Under the pieces are notes generated by a model that was not told the DNA's origin, searched no databases, and worked only from the letters and a program-made list of their open reading frames with translations. Positions 36,266 to 42,248 of a stretch of 42,337 nucleotides of DNA are shown here, piece after piece. The stretch comes from a virus. Position 1 is the stretch's first letter. The number at the start of each line of letters is the position of its first letter. The stretch is from IMG/VR virus record IMGVR_UViG_3300045988_126214. One strand, given 5' to 3'. A program made the translations under genes and the position numbers.

Positions 36266-37057
36266 ATGAAATATTTTATCTGTGTAGGTCACGCGAACTA
36301 TGGCGGTGGCGTCATCTCATCTGCAGATGGTACTAGCAAGGGTGGTGTGAATGAATATAAATACAACAAAGAACTGGCGCCCTATGTGTGCAAATGGCTT
36401 AAGGTAGCAGGACATGAGGCAACCTTGTGTATTGCTCCGGAAGGTCAGCTGCATTCCCTGAATGATGAAATCAAGTATTTCATTGAAGAAGAGAATAAAC
36501 AGAACTATGATCTGTCAGTCCAGCTTCATCTGAATGCCTTTAATGGAGAGGCATATGGCTGCGAAGCATACTGTTACAATGCAAATGGTCTTCCGGAAGC
36601 CCAGCGGATCAGTGCGAAGCTCGGCACTGTCTGGCATGACAGAGGAGCTGAAGAACGTCCCGGACTGTACTGGACCAGAAAGACCAAGGCAAAAGCTGTC
36701 CTGGTAGAATCTTTCTTCTGTGATAACAAGGACGATTATGCCAAAGCGAAAAAACTTGGTATGGATGCTCACGGAAAGCTGATCGCAGAGGGCATTCTGG
36801 GAAAAACGATCACAATTGCGCCGGCGCAACCGAAAGCAAAGTATTACATCCAGGCTGGAGCCTACGGAACAAAAGAAAATGCAGATGTGATGGTGAAAGT
36901 ACTTAAGAAAAAGGGGTTTTCAGCAAGTATCCGCAAAGTAGCCGGCTCCGTCCCATACCGTGTCCAGGTCGGCACATACAGAACAAAGAAGGCTGCCAAT
37001 AAGGTGGTAAAGAAACTGAAGGCAGTAGACTTCCAGGTATTGGTGAAGAGCCTGTAA
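36266..37057 (+). CDS. Endolysin: N-acetylmuramoyl-L-alanine amidase (Amidase_3-like) with a C-terminal SPOR domain
   Basis: VGHANYGGG ... NEY ... DLSVQLHLNAF ... AVLVESFFCDN, then the SPOR-type repeat YYIQAGAYGTKENA...YRVQVGTYRTKKAA. Confidence 0.88.
   Translation: MKYFICVGHANYGGGVISSADGTSKGGVNEYKYNKELAPYVCKWLKVAGHEATLCIAPEGQLHSLNDEIKYFIEEENKQNYDLSVQLHLNAFNGEAYGCEAYCYNANGLPEAQRISAKLGTVWHDRGAEERPGLYWTRKTKAKAVLVESFFCDNKDDYAKAKKLGMDAHGKLIAEGILGKTITIAPAQPKAKYYIQAGAYGTKENADVMVKVLKKKGFSASIRKVAGSVPYRVQVGTYRTKKAANKVVKKLKAVDFQVLVKSL
36816..36829. repeat. Perfect 14-bp palindrome TTGCGCCGGCGCAA, copy 2 (inside the endolysin linker, codons IAPAQ)
   Basis: See 35601-35614. Confidence 0.9.
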
Positions 37058-37258
37058 TGTCGAAATTCGTCGTACTATCTCGCACGATAGTGCGTGACAG
37101 ATGGGAAAGAATCTGGTACATTAAATATATCCCTCAAATAAGAAAAAGTCCTTACAATCATGCAGCTGCCCGCAGAAGAGTGAGGGCTTTTCTTCTTATA
37201 TAAAATGACATGGTTGAAGCTGTATAGAATAATACAAAAATGAATACGTAACATACTG

Positions 37259-37268
37259 GTAGCTAACA
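37259..37268 (+). repeat. Isolated GTAGCTAACA copy (candidate distal arm-type integrase site)
   Basis: Same 10-mer as the five-copy array at 37454-37509. Confidence 0.5.
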
Positions 37269-37365
37269 AAAATCGCGAAAACCCATTAAAATAAGGCACT
37301 ACAGTTTCCGTTGAGGAAGCTGCTAAGGCTGGTAAGTTCTAATTCCATAAAGTGTAAAAGCGTTG

Positions 37366-37402
37366 AAAATGCCGTAAACTCAAGAGTTTACGGCATTTTT
37401 TT
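37366..37402. terminator. Bidirectional terminator inside the attP region
   Basis: 14-bp perfect stem AAAATGCCGTAAAC / GTTTACGGCATTTT with loop TCAAGA. A and T runs on both sides. Confidence 0.75.
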
Positions 37403-37453
37403 AGTTTTCGGAAATTTGCTCAAAACAGTATGAAAACACATGAAAAAATGACG

Positions 37454-37509
37454 GTAGCTAACAAGTAGCTAACAAGTAGCTAACAGACGTAGCTAACACG
37501 TAGCTAACA
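37454..37509 (+). repeat. Five direct copies of GTAGCTAACA (spacing 11, 11, 13, 11 nt); candidate arm-type integrase binding sites of attP
   Basis: Copies start at 37454, 37465, 37476, 37489 and 37500, directly downstream of the int stop. Confidence 0.65.
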
Positions 37510-37550
37510 ATTTTACCGCGAAAAAACAGCAGGACAATGCCTGCTGCTAA

Positions 37551-38615
37551 TCATTTTGTTATCTTTTCCATTTCTCTTTTCAAATCTTCCACAGTACGGT
37601 GGGTATAAACTTTTTCTGTGATATCAGCGATTTCATGCCCAACGATCATTTTCAAAATGTATTCATTCATATCCACATCTTTGGCTTTTGTAATAAAAGT
37701 ATGTCGGGTGTCATGAGGTTTGTGATCCATTCCAAGCCTGGACATGACTTTTTTGAAGCGTCCGCGATATTTATCATATGTAAGGTGAGTGCCTTGTTGG
37801 CCGTCTGGATCATTGAAAAGATAATCGCTTCCCATATTAACTGCATTTTCGTAATTTTTACGAACTAGATCAGCAACCAGTGGATGAATTGGAACTAGAC
37901 GGTTACGGCCAGCATCGGTTTTCAGTCCGCCAGTATATGTCATGTTATCCAGATCCACATCTGCAATTTTCAGAACTGCCAGCTCCTGAGGACGCCAGCC
38001 GGAATAAATCCCGATCAGGATCATATCTGCAAATGGTATTTCAGGATGCTCTATAAGAGCTGTAATTTCCTGATCAGAGAAAGGAATGCGGACGATCTTC
38101 GGACGTTCTCGTTTCACACCATCGCATAAAGCAGCATAGTTTTTATCCACAAGATCATGTTTCATAGCCCATTTGTACATGAGATTAAAGAGGCTCTTCA
38201 TTCGTCCTTTGGTGCTGGATCCAACATCAGCATCCTTGATAGCTCCCTCCAGATGCTCGACTCGGATATCTTTCATTCGCATATCATAAAGGGAAGAACA
38301 GTACTTGTAGGACGCAGTGATTGTTCGGATACTGGAGGGATTACCCAGAGTTGGAAAATACTTGTCCGACCATTTTTCGTATACTTCAGAAAAAGTTATT
38401 TTATTAGAATCCAGATCGTAAGGATTTTCATTGTATTGTACCAGGGCGGTCATAGCTTCCTGCCGGGTAGCAAAATATCCGATTACTTGCCTCTTCTGTT
38501 TGATTCGTTGTCCCTCCTCATCAAATTGCCATCCGAAGGTTTTTGCAGCTACCCATGGCCGCCGTCGTTTGCCAGATAGTTTATATATAGATCCGAATCC
38601 ATTTGGAAGTTTCAT
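37551..38615 (-). CDS. int: Tyrosine recombinase / phage integrase
   Basis: SAM-like N-domain, then catalytic GWRPQEL (R), HDTRHTF (HxxR), and VGHEIADITEKVYTH (H...Y). Confidence 0.93.
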   Translation of the reverse strand: MKLPNGFGSIYKLSGKRRRPWVAAKTFGWQFDEEGQRIKQKRQVIGYFATRQEAMTALVQYNENPYDLDSNKITFSEVYEKWSDKYFPTLGNPSSIRTITASYKYCSSLYDMRMKDIRVEHLEGAIKDADVGSSTKGRMKSLFNLMYKWAMKHDLVDKNYAALCDGVKRERPKIVRIPFSDQEITALIEHPEIPFADMILIGIYSGWRPQELAVLKIADVDLDNMTYTGGLKTDAGRNRLVPIHPLVADLVRKNYENAVNMGSDYLFNDPDGQQGTHLTYDKYRGRFKKVMSRLGMDHKPHDTRHTFITKAKDVDMNEYILKMIVGHEIADITEKVYTHRTVEDLKREMEKITK

Positions 38616-38778: not shown

Positions 38779-38976
38779 TTAGTTCATTTCAAGTTCTTTC
38801 ATCAGCTCTTCCTGAGAAACAAATTCGTGACACTCAGGATTCTTACGGATTTCATCTAATAACATTAGATCGACTTCATCAGGCTCTATTTCCTCGATTT
38901 TATTATGCCAGTACTCAGGAGCATAAACATGATTATTCAACAGAAGTTTGCTTTCACGTAATGAGGCCTGGAGCAT
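38779..38976 (-). CDS. 65-aa strongly acidic hypothetical protein
   Basis: Track ORF trimmed to ATG 38976 (MLQASLRESK...). Lies between the MazF-like gene and int. Confidence 0.6.
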   Translation of the reverse strand: MLQASLRESKLLLNNHVYAPEYWHNKIEEIEPDEVDLMLLDEIRKNPECHEFVSQEELMKELEMN

Positions 38977-39014
38977 GATAATCACATCCTTTCAAAAAAT
39001 GTGCCACTCTGGCG

Positions 39015-39045
39015 CAGGTAACACTGAGGCGGTTTTGTTTATAAC
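39015..39045. repeat. Element E2: degenerate copy (26/31) of E1
   Basis: CTCTGGCGCAGGTAACACTGAGGCGGTTTTG versus CTCTGGTGCTGGTAACACTGGGGCGATTTTT. Confidence 0.7.
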
Positions 39046-39055
39046 GTAAAAGACC

Positions 39056-39081
39056 CCGTATTTCTACGAGGTCTTCACAAT
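39056..39081 (-). terminator. Minus-strand terminator (GACCTCGTA-GAAA-TACGGGGTC followed by U4)
   Basis: 9-bp stem with one G-U pair and a GAAA tetraloop. The C-A mismatch on the plus strand shows it is oriented for the minus strand. Confidence 0.55.
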
Positions 39082-39123
39082 AATAACTTCAATCTTCTAT
39101 TAATGCCCTGTAGGCGCAATTAT

Positions 39124-39141
39124 ACAAAACAATTGTTTTGT
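39124..39141. promoter_or_regulatory. 18-bp perfect palindrome ACAAAACAATTGTTTTGT at the +1 of the 39148-39177 promoter
   Basis: Exact self-complementarity, placed directly downstream of the -10. Confidence 0.6.
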
Positions 39142-39147
39142 GAAGTT

Positions 39148-39177
39148 ATTATAATTCAGTATATGCCTCATAGTCAA
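39148..39177 (-). promoter_or_regulatory. Minus-strand promoter TTGACT-18-TATAAT immediately after the MazF-like stop codon
   Basis: -35 at 39177-39172 and -10 at 39153-39148. Confidence 0.55.
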
Positions 39178-39180
39178 GAC

Positions 39181-39954
39181 TTATTCATCAAAAATATAAA
39201 ATTCTTTTATTTTTTTATTAATGCGAGACATTGTGTTCGCTGAAAGACGGATACCGGATAAGAAATCAGCCGCCTTTTTGGGAGTATAAATACGCATTTT
39301 GCTAATTGCAGTGATTTGCTCAATTTTCGCAATACTTCCTGTTTTCATATTTTCAATTTCAAATTTATCTCTTTCTAGCAAAAAGATTGTCTTTTCAAGC
39401 TCTCCTATTTGCTCTGTGAGATTATTCAAAGCATTTGTTACTTCTGCCGTTTGTTGAGACTCTGGTATTTTTGCAAAAACCTCATAGAGTGAACGAAATT
39501 CGCTTAATTTGGTTTTTACATCGATCAGTTGTCGGCCAAATCTAGTAGATACAAGGCTATAAAATTCAGTACCAAGTGACAAATCACGCTCATGAACTTC
39601 CTTATTTGGCTTAATGGAAGATAAAGGGACAACCATGAGAGTATTAGCATTATGAGGATTTTTTTTATCCAATACAACAGCATAGTGCAAGCCCCCTAAT
39701 TCGGCACCCACGCGAAAACCAAAATTAACACGAATAATATCGCCACGTGTATACGCCAATAGTTTTGATGGATTAAATTTTTCCTCAAAACGGATGAACT
39801 CGGCATAGCTCTGCAGCCAATAAGAAATTAAATCAGCTTTCTTCAAATGTTTATTAGAGGAATCATTGATTAACGCTTCAAGTATGTTGTTCATGGATCT
39901 TATGGCCTTCTTTTTGTTTTGGATAACATCCTCTTTGGTTATAGGACGAGACAA
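39181..39954 (-). CDS. 257-aa MazF/PemK-fold protein with an N-terminal extension and a ~95-aa coiled-coil insertion; orphan, with no adjacent antitoxin
   Basis: GDIIRVNFGFRVGAELGGLHYAVVL, TLMVVPLSS and GSIAKIEQITAISKMRI align by eye with the MazF blocks GDLIWVDFDPTKGSEQAGHRPAVVLS, MCLCVPCTT and GVALADQVKSIAWRAR. TTG start 7 nt after AAGGAGG. Confidence 0.7.
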   Translation of the reverse strand: MSRPITKEDVIQNKKKAIRSMNNILEALINDSSNKHLKKADLISYWLQSYAEFIRFEEKFNPSKLLAYTRGDIIRVNFGFRVGAELGGLHYAVVLDKKNPHNANTLMVVPLSSIKPNKEVHERDLSLGTEFYSLVSTRFGRQLIDVKTKLSEFRSLYEVFAKIPESQQTAEVTNALNNLTEQIGELEKTIFLLERDKFEIENMKTGSIAKIEQITAISKMRIYTPKKAADFLSGIRLSANTMSRINKKIKEFYIFDE

Positions 39955-40026
39955 TCGACCACCTCCTTAGGGTTAGATTTTATTAAAACGCCGAAGCAAA
40001 TTAATCCCTCTGTTTATCGTATAATA

Positions 40027-40054
40027 AGTATAAAAGATAATGCTGAACGAACAA
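40027..40054 (-). promoter_or_regulatory. Candidate promoter of the MazF-like gene, TTGTTC-16-TATACT
   Basis: The -35 (40054-40049) lies inside Cheo-like box 1. Confidence 0.4.
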
Positions 40055-40061
40055 ATGTTTG
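40048..40061. promoter_or_regulatory. Cheo/LexA-like box 1, CGAACAAATGTTTG
   Basis: One mismatch from the Gram-positive SOS-box consensus CGAAC-N4-GTTCG. Confidence 0.5.
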
Positions 40062-40070
40062 TGAAATATA

Positions 40071-40099
40071 TTGCACTTCAAATATAAATGGTGTATATT
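40071..40099 (+). promoter_or_regulatory. Promoter TTGCAC-17-TATATT for the 41-aa ORF
   Basis: Hexamers at 40071-40076 and 40094-40099. The predicted +1 falls in box 2. Confidence 0.5.
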
Positions 40100-40104
40100 A
40101 AAAA

Positions 40105-40118
40105 CAAACAAACGTTCG
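40105..40118. promoter_or_regulatory. Cheo/LexA-like box 2, CAAACAAACGTTCG (reverse complement CGAACGTTTGTTTG)
   Basis: Same one-mismatch match as box 1, in inverted orientation, 43 nt away. Confidence 0.5.
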
Positions 40119-40144
40119 AATAAACGAGAACGGGGGGCATACAT

Positions 40145-40270
40145 ATGATGAAGAATGATAAAGAAGAGTACAAGGGCAAAATAATTGAGTTGGTAAACTT
40201 GATTAAAGAAGAATCCGTTCTGAGGCGGATCTACTTAATAATAATTACCATGATAGGGGCCGACCATTGA
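40145..40270 (+). CDS. 41-aa hypothetical protein (candidate SOS-controlled antirepressor), below the ORF-track cutoff
   Basis: GGGGGG RBS upstream of ATGATG. Translation MMKNDKEEYKGKIIELVNLIKEESVLRRIYLIIITMIGADH. Confidence 0.45.
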   Translation: MMKNDKEEYKGKIIELVNLIKEESVLRRIYLIIITMIGADH

Positions 40271-40285
40271 GGGTGGCTCTTTTCT
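40259..40285 (+). terminator. Hairpin plus T-rich tract between the convergent 41-aa ORF and the repressor gene
   Basis: GCC(G)ACC-ATTGAG-GGTGGC followed by TCTTTTCTT. Confidence 0.4.
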
Positions 40286-40662
40286 TATTCTATGCCCAGG
40301 CAAGCTTTCATAAATTCTTCAATATGTTTTAGCTTTTCCGGATCAGCTTCTGCGATAGCATTTAACATATTTCTCGCCATCTGGTTCTCGGTCCTACTAA
40401 GTTTTCCAAGATTAATAGAGAATCGATCTTCTTCATTCACTTTCGTGAACATGTTATCGTCTCCGCCTTCACCGGTTCGAAGCCAAATTTCATTTACTTC
40501 AAATTCACGACAAATAGATTTTATATTAGCCTCAGTTAAACTATTACGACCAGTTTCGATAGCACTCATAGTGTTCTTTTTCAAACCTATTTTTTCACCG
40601 AATTTTTCAAGCGTAAGTTGACGGGTTTTCCGAACTTTTTTTACGCGTTCGCCTTGCGTCAT
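40285..40662 (-). CDS. cI-like XRE-family HTH repressor (125 aa, no S24 peptidase domain)
   Basis: LTLEKFGEKIGLKKNTMSAIETGRNSLTEANIKSICREF HTH. AAGGAGGA RBS before ATG 40662. Divergent from the cro-like gene. Confidence 0.85.
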   Translation of the reverse strand: MTQGERVKKVRKTRQLTLEKFGEKIGLKKNTMSAIETGRNSLTEANIKSICREFEVNEIWLRTGEGGDDNMFTKVNEEDRFSINLGKLSRTENQMARNMLNAIAEADPEKLKHIEEFMKACLGIE

Positions 40663-40689
40663 TACTAAATCCTCCTTTCTTATGAATCC

Positions 40690-40718
40690 AATATAGCACC
40701 CTGGGATTGCAAAGTCAA
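40690..40718 (-). promoter_or_regulatory. Repressor promoter TTGACT-17-TATATT
   Basis: -35 at 40718-40713 and -10 at 40695-40690. Confidence 0.6.
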
Positions 40719-40746
40719 CAAAAAAGTTCATTAAATAGACAAATAA
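40718..40746. repeat. Left copy of the 29-bp target-site duplication
   Basis: Identical to 55-83. Confidence 0.8.
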
Positions 40747-40823: not shown

Positions 40824-42248
40824 ATGGAGGTAACGATTATCAGAAAGGTAGAATTATCAATGGATGAACAAAAGAAGTATGAGGTGATCAAATCATTGGC
40901 AGATCATCCAGCCCCTAACAAGCAGAGAGCTGCCCTTACTCTCGGTTGTACTGTACGTCACATTAACCGTATGCTTAAAGGCTACAAAGAGCATGGCAAA
41001 GCCTATTTTATCCATGGCAACAGAGGACGTAAGCCAGCCAATACCATCCCCAATGAAACTCGTAATCTTGTTGTCGATTTATACCGCAACAAATACTATG
41101 ATGCCAATTTTGTGCATTTCACTGAGTTATTAGGAAAACATGAAGATATCCACATCTCCCCTTCAGCGGTTATGTCTATTCTCGAAGCTGAATACATTCT
41201 CTCTCCCAAGGCTACAAAAGCTAAGAAAAAGAGAATCAAAGAACAATTAAAAGCCGATAAAAAAGCAGCGAAATCTCAGAAAGAAGCGGATCAGATACAG
41301 ATTAATCTTGTTGCTCTTGAGGACGCCCATTCCCGCCGTCCCAGAGCCGCTTATTTCGGTGAACTGCAGCAAATGGACGCAACTCCCTACGAATGGATCC
41401 CCGGTCAGATATGGCATCTGCATCTGGCTATAGATGATGCTACAGGAAGGATTACCGGCGGTTGGTTTGATACCCAGGAAACTCTGAATGGCTATTACCA
41501 CGTTTTCCATCAGATCCTCACAACTTACGGTATCCCCTACAAGTTCTTTACAGACCGCCGTACTGTTTTCACCTATAAAAAGAAAAACTCCCCATCTATC
41601 GATGAGGATACCTATACACAGTTTGCCTATGCCTGTAAACAGCTGGGGGTTGAACTGGGATCAAGCAGTGTGCCTCAGGCAAAAGGACGTGTAGAACGCC
41701 TGAACCAGACGCTACAGTCGCGCCTGCCAGTCGAGTTAAGACTTGCAGGCATAACGACCATAGACGCTGCCAATGAATTCCTAAACTCCTACATAAAGGA
41801 ATTCAATGAGAAGTTTTCCCTTCCCATTCATGGTATCAAGTCTGTGTTCGAAGTGCAACCCCAAATTGAAAAAATTAACCTGATTCTTGCAGTTTTATGC
41901 GAAAGAACGGTAGATACCGGACACTGTTTAAGGCATTCCAATAAATACTACCGTATGATTGACAGCAGAGGCAATCAGGTCCACTACCGAAAAGGAACAA
42001 AGGTAATGTTTATTCAGGCTTTTGATGGCAGTCAATACTGCTGTGTAAATGACAAAGACATCTACGCACTGGAAGAAATACCCGAGCACGAAACAAAATC
42101 AAAAGACTTAGATATAGACTATACTCCGCCAAAACCAAAGAAGCCCCGCATTCCACCAATGAATCATCCCTGGCGTCGCCAACAGTTTGGAAAGTTTGTC
42201 AAACAGCAAGAACACCACCAGAATGATCAAGATACAAAAATTGCCTGA
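40824..42248 (+). CDS. DDE (rve/integrase-core) transposase with an N-terminal HTH, ISNCY-like
   Basis: N-terminal HTH (ALTLGCTVRHINRMLKGY). Catalytic QMDATP (D), FFTDRRTVF (D), AKGRVERLNQTLQ (E). Alternative start at ATG 40860. Confidence 0.88.
   Translation: MEVTIIRKVELSMDEQKKYEVIKSLADHPAPNKQRAALTLGCTVRHINRMLKGYKEHGKAYFIHGNRGRKPANTIPNETRNLVVDLYRNKYYDANFVHFTELLGKHEDIHISPSAVMSILEAEYILSPKATKAKKKRIKEQLKADKKAAKSQKEADQIQINLVALEDAHSRRPRAAYFGELQQMDATPYEWIPGQIWHLHLAIDDATGRITGGWFDTQETLNGYYHVFHQILTTYGIPYKFFTDRRTVFTYKKKNSPSIDEDTYTQFAYACKQLGVELGSSSVPQAKGRVERLNQTLQSRLPVELRLAGITTIDAANEFLNSYIKEFNEKFSLPIHGIKSVFEVQPQIEKINLILAVLCERTVDTGHCLRHSNKYYRMIDSRGNQVHYRKGTKVMFIQAFDGSQYCCVNDKDIYALEEIPEHETKSKDLDIDYTPPKPKKPRIPPMNHPWRRQQFGKFVKQQEHHQNDQDTKIA

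Follow-up and report, generated by a model that had tools for sequence, protein, structure and literature searches.

Sma of the staphylococcal satellite SaPIpT1028 is presented as a single-protein anti-phage system of Staphylococcus in PMC12829572, a copy of it in the nuSa-alpha island is mentioned in PMC12409344 and PMC12829572, and its presence in Staphylococcus aureus prophages is stated in PMC13123717. Another single-protein effector is Tha of the S. aureus phage 80alpha, which is of the HEPN ribonuclease (RNase) type, acts in abortive infection, is encoded between cI and int and is transcribed together with cI in lysogeny (PMC11087260). The genes tha and ith form a "noncontiguous operon", in which a small antisense gene encodes Ith, a specific protein inhibitor of Tha (PMC11087260). 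Here, we describe a gene (39181..39954, minus strand) encoding a 257-residue protein in a 42,337-nucleotide stretch of viral DNA, IMG/VR virus record IMGVR_UViG_3300045988_126214, the whole of which is referred to as the window. The gene probably encodes a Sma-family, MazF-like single-protein phage defence, and a temperate Lachnospiraceae phage carries it within its lysogeny module as a cargo cassette of 1.07 kb. An earlier note on this DNA had suggested a defence or abortive-infection module with a split MazF/PemK fold, and the defence reading is supported by the homology to the published Sma system and by the genomic context.

The open reading frame (ORF) with its TTG start and its stop codon at 39181-39183 is present in the ORF list, and its assignment draws on Pfam, PHROG and an AlphaFold2 model compared by Foldseek. 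A strong Shine-Dalgarno sequence, AAGGAGG (39962..39968, minus strand), can be read directly in the DNA seven nucleotides 5' of the TTG, as had been pointed out before. In the alignment, the homologues are conserved from residue 1 onward, starting with MSKE.TKEDVIQNKK, which supports the TTG as start codon. All four sequence blocks that the earlier note had quoted are found in the protein.

The MazF-like fold is supported by three lines of evidence. In Pfam, the protein matches PF02452 (PemK_toxin) with 41.9 bits compared to a gathering score of 23.1, the match being divided into two stretches. A profile of 37 family members matches the MazF proteins of Bacillus subtilis, Bacillus anthracis and Bacillus cereus in two colinear pieces, and what it matches are the MazF/EndoA/MoxT sequences of solved structure, with family positions 68-116 aligning to MazF 3-52 and family positions ~209-246 to MazF 61-102. 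Finally, an AlphaFold2 model built on the 37-sequence family alignment (mean predicted local distance difference test score 84.7) shows a Src homology 3-like barrel with a C-terminal helix that superposes on solved MazF structures in Foldseek. The best matches in the PDB are the MazF proteins of S. aureus and B. subtilis, and further matches include MazF of B. anthracis, Mycobacterium tuberculosis and Escherichia coli as well as Kid. Across the top 40 PDB matches, almost all of which are MazF, the template modelling (TM) score on the target is 0.66-0.80, the best matches reaching 0.77-0.80 at a root-mean-square deviation of ~3 Å. The split MazF/PemK barrel that had been recognized from the letters is thus borne out by the Pfam match above cut-off, the two-piece colinear profile match and the structural matches.

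The predicted model also shows how the barrel is divided: a helical hairpin interrupts it, and a helical extension stands in front of it. The order of elements is two helices (residues 7-29 and 37-59), four strands, two long helices (130-161 and 170-201), a pair of short strands and, at the C-terminus, a last helix. The helical N-terminal extension that had been foreseen corresponds to residues 1-66 with the first two helices (39757..39954, minus strand; alignment and AlphaFold2 model). Within the close subfamily this hairpin is conserved as strongly as the barrel itself, with the motif VIQNKK..I..N..E..IN...LKKA..YW, and it is shorter in Sma and in the phage 77 and pneumococcal members. The N-terminal half of the barrel follows with residues 67-128, including GGLHY and PLSS (39571..39756, minus strand; profile match and alignment). 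The insertion covers residues 129-205 (39340..39570, minus strand; AlphaFold2 model and alignment) and occupies the position of the MazF beta4-beta5 loop. A helical insertion had been anticipated correctly; it is, however, ~77 residues long (residues ~129-205) rather than ~95, and lies between the second and the third sequence block instead of the third and the fourth. Residues 206-257 form the C-terminal half of the barrel (GSIAKIEQITAISKMRI) and the C-terminal helix (39184..39339, minus strand; profile match and AlphaFold2 model). The length of the insertion varies from 77 to 103 residues across the family, its sequence is hypervariable (2.2 bits compared to ~1 bit elsewhere), and it is net acidic in 92% of the close members.

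The gene can be connected to Sma through ORF005 of SaPIpT1028 (PT1028), a protein of 265 residues in the gene order stl, int, ORF005. ORF005 matches phrog_1412 over its full length (E=4e-67), and the window protein is likewise a full-length member of phrog_1412 (E=1.5e-47). In a direct BLASTP comparison, both proteins share 27% identity over residues 43-251 (E=3e-17). As ORF005 is the sole ORF with a PF02452 match among the 13 PT1028 ORFs scanned, it is, by elimination, presumably the gene that was published as Sma. Judged by sequence, the window gene is a new, distant member of this known kind.

The structures of MazF with RNA identify an arginine and a threonine as catalytic residues, namely R25 and T48 in the B. 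subtilis protein and R29 and T52 in that of E. coli. In the window protein, H90 (codon 39685-39687) occupies the place of R25 and S112 (codon 39619-39621) that of T48 of B. subtilis MazF. In the alignment, GGLHY stands opposite GGVRP of MazF, which bears out the earlier remark that the RP of the substrate loop reads HY. The histidine is found at the R25 position in all eight Sma-family members that were aligned, whose identity to the window protein ranges from 21 to 59%, and the alignment of 37 sequences shows it without exception. Moreover, a serine or threonine at the T48 position and the motif ISK.R are kept in members down to 21% identity. The alignments show a conserved active-site-like constellation of the family, consisting of the invariant histidine, the Ser/Thr and ISK.R.

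The exchange of the catalytic arginine for histidine could also mean that the MazF fold is catalytically inactive and that the protein has a non-nuclease role in lysogeny, i.e., as regulator, as superinfection-exclusion factor or as a CcdB-like inhibitor of an enzyme of the host or of a phage. CcdB shares the fold of MazF and poisons gyrase without cleaving RNA, the gene lies inside the cI-int operon, and the conservation of the N-terminal helices points to a surface for contact with another protein. However, the substitute is an invariant histidine, which is capable of general acid/base chemistry, the Ser/Thr at T48 and the EQI..ISK.R motif resembling an RNA contact are kept, and the homologue was published with the name and the phenotype of an anti-phage system. 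An inactive fold is therefore rather unlikely.

The protein is neither an orphan nor the founder of a novel module, as had been supposed, since hundreds of full-length homologues exist and the family corresponds to PHROG 1412, which is already annotated in pneumococcal phages. A word-indexed search resulted in 422 clusters at 90% identity; among the matches listed from this search, all have 249-311 residues and all carry PF02452. An exhaustive hidden Markov model search, which covered 1.84 billion representatives, gave 367 clusters at E<=1e-30 (50% identity) and 961 at E<=1e-10. Relatives are encoded in the genomes of 245 GTDB species, which for the most part belong to the Lachnospiraceae and other Clostridia; among the named species, Blautia aquisgranensis is nearest with 70% identity. 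By tblastn against phage records, 64 phages and satellites of Streptococcus and Staphylococcus match, including the pneumococcal "PemK domain phage protein" genes, which have carried this annotation for years, phage 77 ORF017 and PT1028 ORF005. Phrog_1412 is labelled "antitoxin mazE-like" even though its proteins have the MazF, i.e., the toxin fold, and this label is a misnomer. It also passes into RefSeq phage records, such as those of phage 77, K13 and phiARI0468-1. An NCBIfam scan of the window protein gave nothing useful, and when the phage collection was searched by megablast with the 3' third of the window, there was no match.

To place the gene in its context, which the earlier note had proposed for the homologues in general, 82 non-redundant loci were surveyed, comprising 77 GTDB loci as well as phage, satellite and metagenome loci. 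All ORFs were called and those within 700 bp of the gene were clustered. XRE repressors were found at 30 of the 82 loci, directly upstream and on the same strand, and recombinases at 37 (25 tyrosine integrases and 12 serine recombinases), and roughly half of the homologues stand between a repressor and a recombinase. Beyond these two classes, no recurrent small neighbour or partner gene was found within 700 bp in the 82 loci, in agreement with the earlier statement that this is a single gene without antitoxin. Of the 77 GTDB loci, 35 have a recombinase on the same strand no more than 2 kb downstream. Loci that do not have a downstream recombinase show unrelated housekeeping neighbours, e.g., a dehydrogenase, a tRNA synthetase or rubrerythrin, which agrees with the position of a gene at an element's border. 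Javan166, the pneumococcal phage 040922 and phage 77 also have the order repressor, gene, integrase. In the window, the gene lies between an XRE/cI-type repressor (40285..40731, minus strand; the gene callers start at 40662, giving 125 residues; no S24 domain) and a gene annotated as tyrosine integrase (37551..38615, minus strand). The three genes share the minus strand, which is the orientation of lysogeny genes and which recurs in the related loci, among them Javan166, phage 040922, phage 77 and SaPIpT1028, and the position agrees with the prophage defence slot that had been recognized.

These neighbours bear on the possibility that the protein acts as toxin in a classical MazEF-like pair of type II, the antitoxin of which was overlooked, i.e., the 68-aa ORF, the XRE repressor or the antisense 41-aa ORF (aa, amino acids). 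The 68-aa ORF (38779..38985, minus strand), which the earlier note had left out of account, lies on the same strand 196 nucleotides downstream of the Sma-like gene and shows a weak match (E=0.026) to DUF6290, a RelB/ParD-like antitoxin family. XRE genes are placed directly upstream on the same strand at the 30 loci mentioned, and for Tha of phage 80alpha a small antisense gene does act as inhibitor (PMC11087260). Nevertheless, the family of the 68-aa ORF is narrow, with 30 clusters that are all at least 68% identical, and relatives lie near just two other Sma-like genes. In sibling prophages, a ParE toxin is followed by a 79-aa gene, to which the C-terminal 56 residues of the 68-aa ORF are 75% identical, and they are therefore part of the module that was replaced; the N-terminus differs from the 79-aa gene and a recombination breakpoint, 38923, lies inside the 68-aa ORF. 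Because of its narrow family, its rare co-occurrence and its homology to the partner gene of a ParE toxin, the 68-aa ORF was rejected as a missed antitoxin; by sequence comparison it is probably a leftover of the replaced module, i.e., an orphaned or truncated ParE-antitoxin-like gene. The XRE neighbours are accompanied by divergent cro-like genes and sometimes by ImmA, which identifies them as phage repressors, and are absent at half of the loci, while the family of the 41-aa ORF adjoins unrelated cargo genes. An overlooked antitoxin is thus improbable.

Several of these observations weigh against a Sma-like defence function. The identity of ORF005 to the window protein is just 27% and ORF005 was equated with Sma by elimination only. 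For the trigger and the substrate of Sma, the literature search gave secondary mentions only; the primary paper is reportedly that of Fillol-Salom et al. (2022, Cell 185:3248). The catalytic arginine of MazF is missing at the aligned position, where a histidine stands instead, and RNase activity is not assured. Furthermore, about half of the loci do not have an adjacent recombinase, and the models of PADLOC 2.0 gave no match to the window protein. Finally, the charge of the insertion is +1 in Sma and +2 in phage 77 ORF017, i.e., it is not acidic in these proteins, which weakens the idea of an acidic cis-inhibitor.

If the gene acts in defence as proposed, the lysogen would produce the Sma-like protein in an auto-inhibited state, in which the helices outside the barrel, i.e., the N-terminal hairpin and the variable, mostly acidic insertion, would hold the nuclease off or act as a sensor. 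A component of an infecting phage would release the nuclease, leading to RNA cleavage and to an aborted infection, and the lysogen together with its prophage might thereby be protected against competing phages. The variability and acidity of the insertion argue weakly for a role of the extra segments as cis-inhibitor or sensor, as judged from the aligned proteins. It is possible, although on the whole doubtful, that the Sma family forms a mechanistically distinct branch of MazF, which uses histidine in place of arginine and carries a four-helix module as built-in antitoxin and phage sensor within one polypeptide. Under this assumption, the protein would be a fused, self-contained toxin-antitoxin-sensor, in which the variable hairpin sets which phages are recognized, and the region with LexA boxes described below could couple the cassette or the antisense 41-aa gene to the SOS response, avoiding autoimmunity on induction.

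The Sma-like gene occupies a swapped cassette of 1,070 bp (38924..39993), which was delimited by blastn against the sibling prophages L107 and L110 as the stretch without similarity to them. Identity to the siblings is 99% from the cI side to 39994, there is none within the cassette, and similarity resumes at 38923 with 86% identity; since similarity stops and resumes at these points, the gene can be regarded as exchanged cargo. The 125-aa cI of the window phage is very widespread, and in the sibling prophages different cargo is enclosed by a cI identical to it together with the same 41-aa ORF on one side and by a similar integrase on the other. Equivalent slots elsewhere hold nuclease-type genes of the Mrr_cat and T5orf172 kinds. 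In the siblings L107-L114, the slot equivalent to 38924..39993 holds alternative cargos, and these integrated prophages adjoin a gene for a GGGtGRT protein. One version of the cargo encodes a 351-aa protein without clear domain, a ParE toxin of 78 aa and the 79-aa gene. In L110, the cargo is a 322-aa protein with a YbjQ_1 domain, and an insertion sequence (HTH_38, 437 aa) is inserted at the start of the 41-aa ORF. The G+C content was rejected as a cassette-specific signal, as the slight dip spans the whole lysogeny module (0.34-0.38 compared to ~0.40-0.47).

The earlier note had ascribed dedicated regulatory DNA on both sides to the gene. Downstream, this holds true, as a terminator-like hairpin of its own (GACCUCG-loop-CGGGGUC followed by UUUU; 39040..39080, minus strand) lies ~100 nucleotides after the stop codon with a folding energy of -20.5 kcal/mol (z=-4.2). 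Upstream, however, 39994..40144 is 98-99% identical in siblings with other cargo. The cassette-specific DNA 5' of the start codon amounts to just 40 nucleotides, which hold the Shine-Dalgarno sequence; as the cassette brings no more than this, the upstream regulatory DNA belongs to the slot and not to the gene.

This shared, divergent control region of the cargo slot (39994..40144) contains two LexA (Cheo) boxes and a weak leftward promoter-like site, and the whole divergent stretch from the Sma-like gene to the 41-aa ORF measures 190 bp. The Firmicutes LexA box CGAACRNRYGTTYG is matched perfectly at 40048-40061 and with one mismatch at 40105-40118, 57 bp apart. The promoter-like site (40065..40037) is the sole one upstream of the Sma-like gene. 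In the sigma-70 promoter scan, sites were no commoner than in shuffled sequence, hence no promoter is claimed.

The boxes raise the question whether the gene encodes an SOS-controlled toxin, which is repressed by host LexA, induced by DNA damage and acts in prophage induction or host shut-off instead of defence. The two boxes are the sole matches in the 42-kb window, with 0.26 expected, the first one overlaps the only leftward promoter-like site, and as the cassette contributes just 40 nucleotides 5' of the start codon, the promoter has to be located in the shared region or further upstream. However, the boxes are located in DNA that is common to siblings with other cargo, they are present upstream of the Sma-like gene at only one of the 82 loci, and the promoter-like site is weak and of a kind no commoner than in shuffled sequence. 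Moreover, LexA boxes recur in unrelated prophages, where the 41-aa ORF has a 32-aa homologue that they precede by 32 and 60 nucleotides. As a result of this recurrence, the boxes more probably control the rightward 41-aa ORF than the leftward Sma-like gene. LexA control was rejected as a feature of the Sma family, and a function of the window gene as SOS toxin is very improbable.

The 41-aa ORF (40145..40270, plus strand) points away from the Sma-like gene and towards cI. Its family consists of small proteins of 32-78 aa with the motif YK..I.EL...I..E..L.RIY and comprises at least 101 clusters, and homologues are present in the loci L043, L052, L072, L077 and L097-L114. In the loci examined (L094-L114), it is always placed between the variable cargo slot and cI and convergent with cI, and it is sometimes preceded by a small helix-turn-helix (HTH) gene or else by LexA boxes. 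The cargos beside the family are unrelated and include the Mrr_cat and T5orf172 genes; as the family accompanies many different cargos, the 41-aa ORF was rejected as an Ith-like specific inhibitor of Sma. It would instead be part of an SOS-sensing switch of phages whose cI does not have a cleavage domain, and it may act as an SOS-controlled antirepressor or antisense element. Since the cI of the window does not carry an S24 domain and a gene for ImmA is missing, SOS sensing may run via host LexA at the 40048-40118 boxes.

Further observations concern the DNA around the cassette. A near-consensus promoter-like site, TTGACT-18-TATAAT (11 of 12 positions), is located at 39148..39177 on the minus strand, directly behind the Sma-like gene's stop codon and 5' of the terminator-like hairpin; it could drive the 68-aa ORF and int. 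A perfect inverted repeat of 12 nucleotides, ATAATAACTTCA / TGAAGTTATTAT (39080-39091 / 39141-39152), flanks the promoter-like stretch. The integrase gene is separated by ~490 nucleotides (37058..37550) from the lysis genes (36266..37057, amidase with SPOR domain) and the window holds no host flank. Because of this short gap and the missing flank, the phage in the window looks excised or circular, and attP would lie in the gap 37058..37550. On the other side of cI, a 474-aa transposase (HTH and rve-like; "transposase" in PHROG; 40824..42248, plus strand) is inserted in the intergenic switch region between cI and cro. It is absent from L095 and L107, which have the same lysogeny module, and is present in two tandem copies in L094.

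Compared to the canonical MazF/PemK/EndoA proteins (PF02452; PDB 4MDX, 4MZM, 1NE8), the window protein shares the barrel fold (TM 0.77-0.80 on target), the colinear blocks, a Ser/Thr at the T48 position and the EQI..I.K.R segment. It differs in being more than twice the size, with an N-terminal helical extension and an insertion that ranges from 77 to 103 residues in the family, and in that the catalytic arginine is an invariant histidine in the Sma family. In contrast to the type II systems MazEF and PemIK, no gene for a MazE or PemI antitoxin lies beside the Sma-family gene. GajC, which can be compared by description only, acts together with the helicase GajB from a two-gene operon in E. coli, whereas the window protein stands alone. 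The topology in the window, i.e., cI, antisense 41-aa ORF, cargo and int, resembles the tha/ith operon. However, Tha has a HEPN fold whereas the window protein has that of MazF, and the 41-aa ORF, the family of which accompanies many cargos, is unlike Ith and unlikely to be a specific anti-Sma protein.

The closest system is Sma/ORF005 itself. Both proteins belong to PHROG 1412 and consist of a short helical N-terminus, a PemK N-half, a long helical, coiled-coil-like insertion and a PemK C-half, both contain the motifs G-x-H-aromatic and PL(S/T)S, and both are encoded by a single gene beside the integrase of a temperate element in the direction expressed in lysogeny. They differ in the first helix, which is longer and highly conserved in the window protein, in the insertion, which is acidic in the window protein and slightly basic in Sma, in the carrier, i.e., a gut Lachnospiraceae phage compared to a staphylococcal satellite, and in the position of the gene, which follows int in SaPIpT1028 (stl, int, sma) and precedes it in the window. 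As a summary, no new category of system is opened, and the merit is modest and lies in the breadth of the family in gut phages and in a defined slot for cargo exchange. The label of PHROG 1412 needs correction, and testable features of the protein can now be named, namely the residues H90 and S112, the hairpin with its variability and the N-terminal helix with its conservation. One cI/int backbone with Sma-like, ParE-module or YbjQ-domain cargo represents a natural experiment on the exchange and the regulation of prophage defence cargo. By the comparison, Sma, a staphylococcal defence gene reported from experiments, becomes part of a large family, which is dominated by prophages of gut Lachnospiraceae and Clostridia and lies outside PADLOC 2.0.

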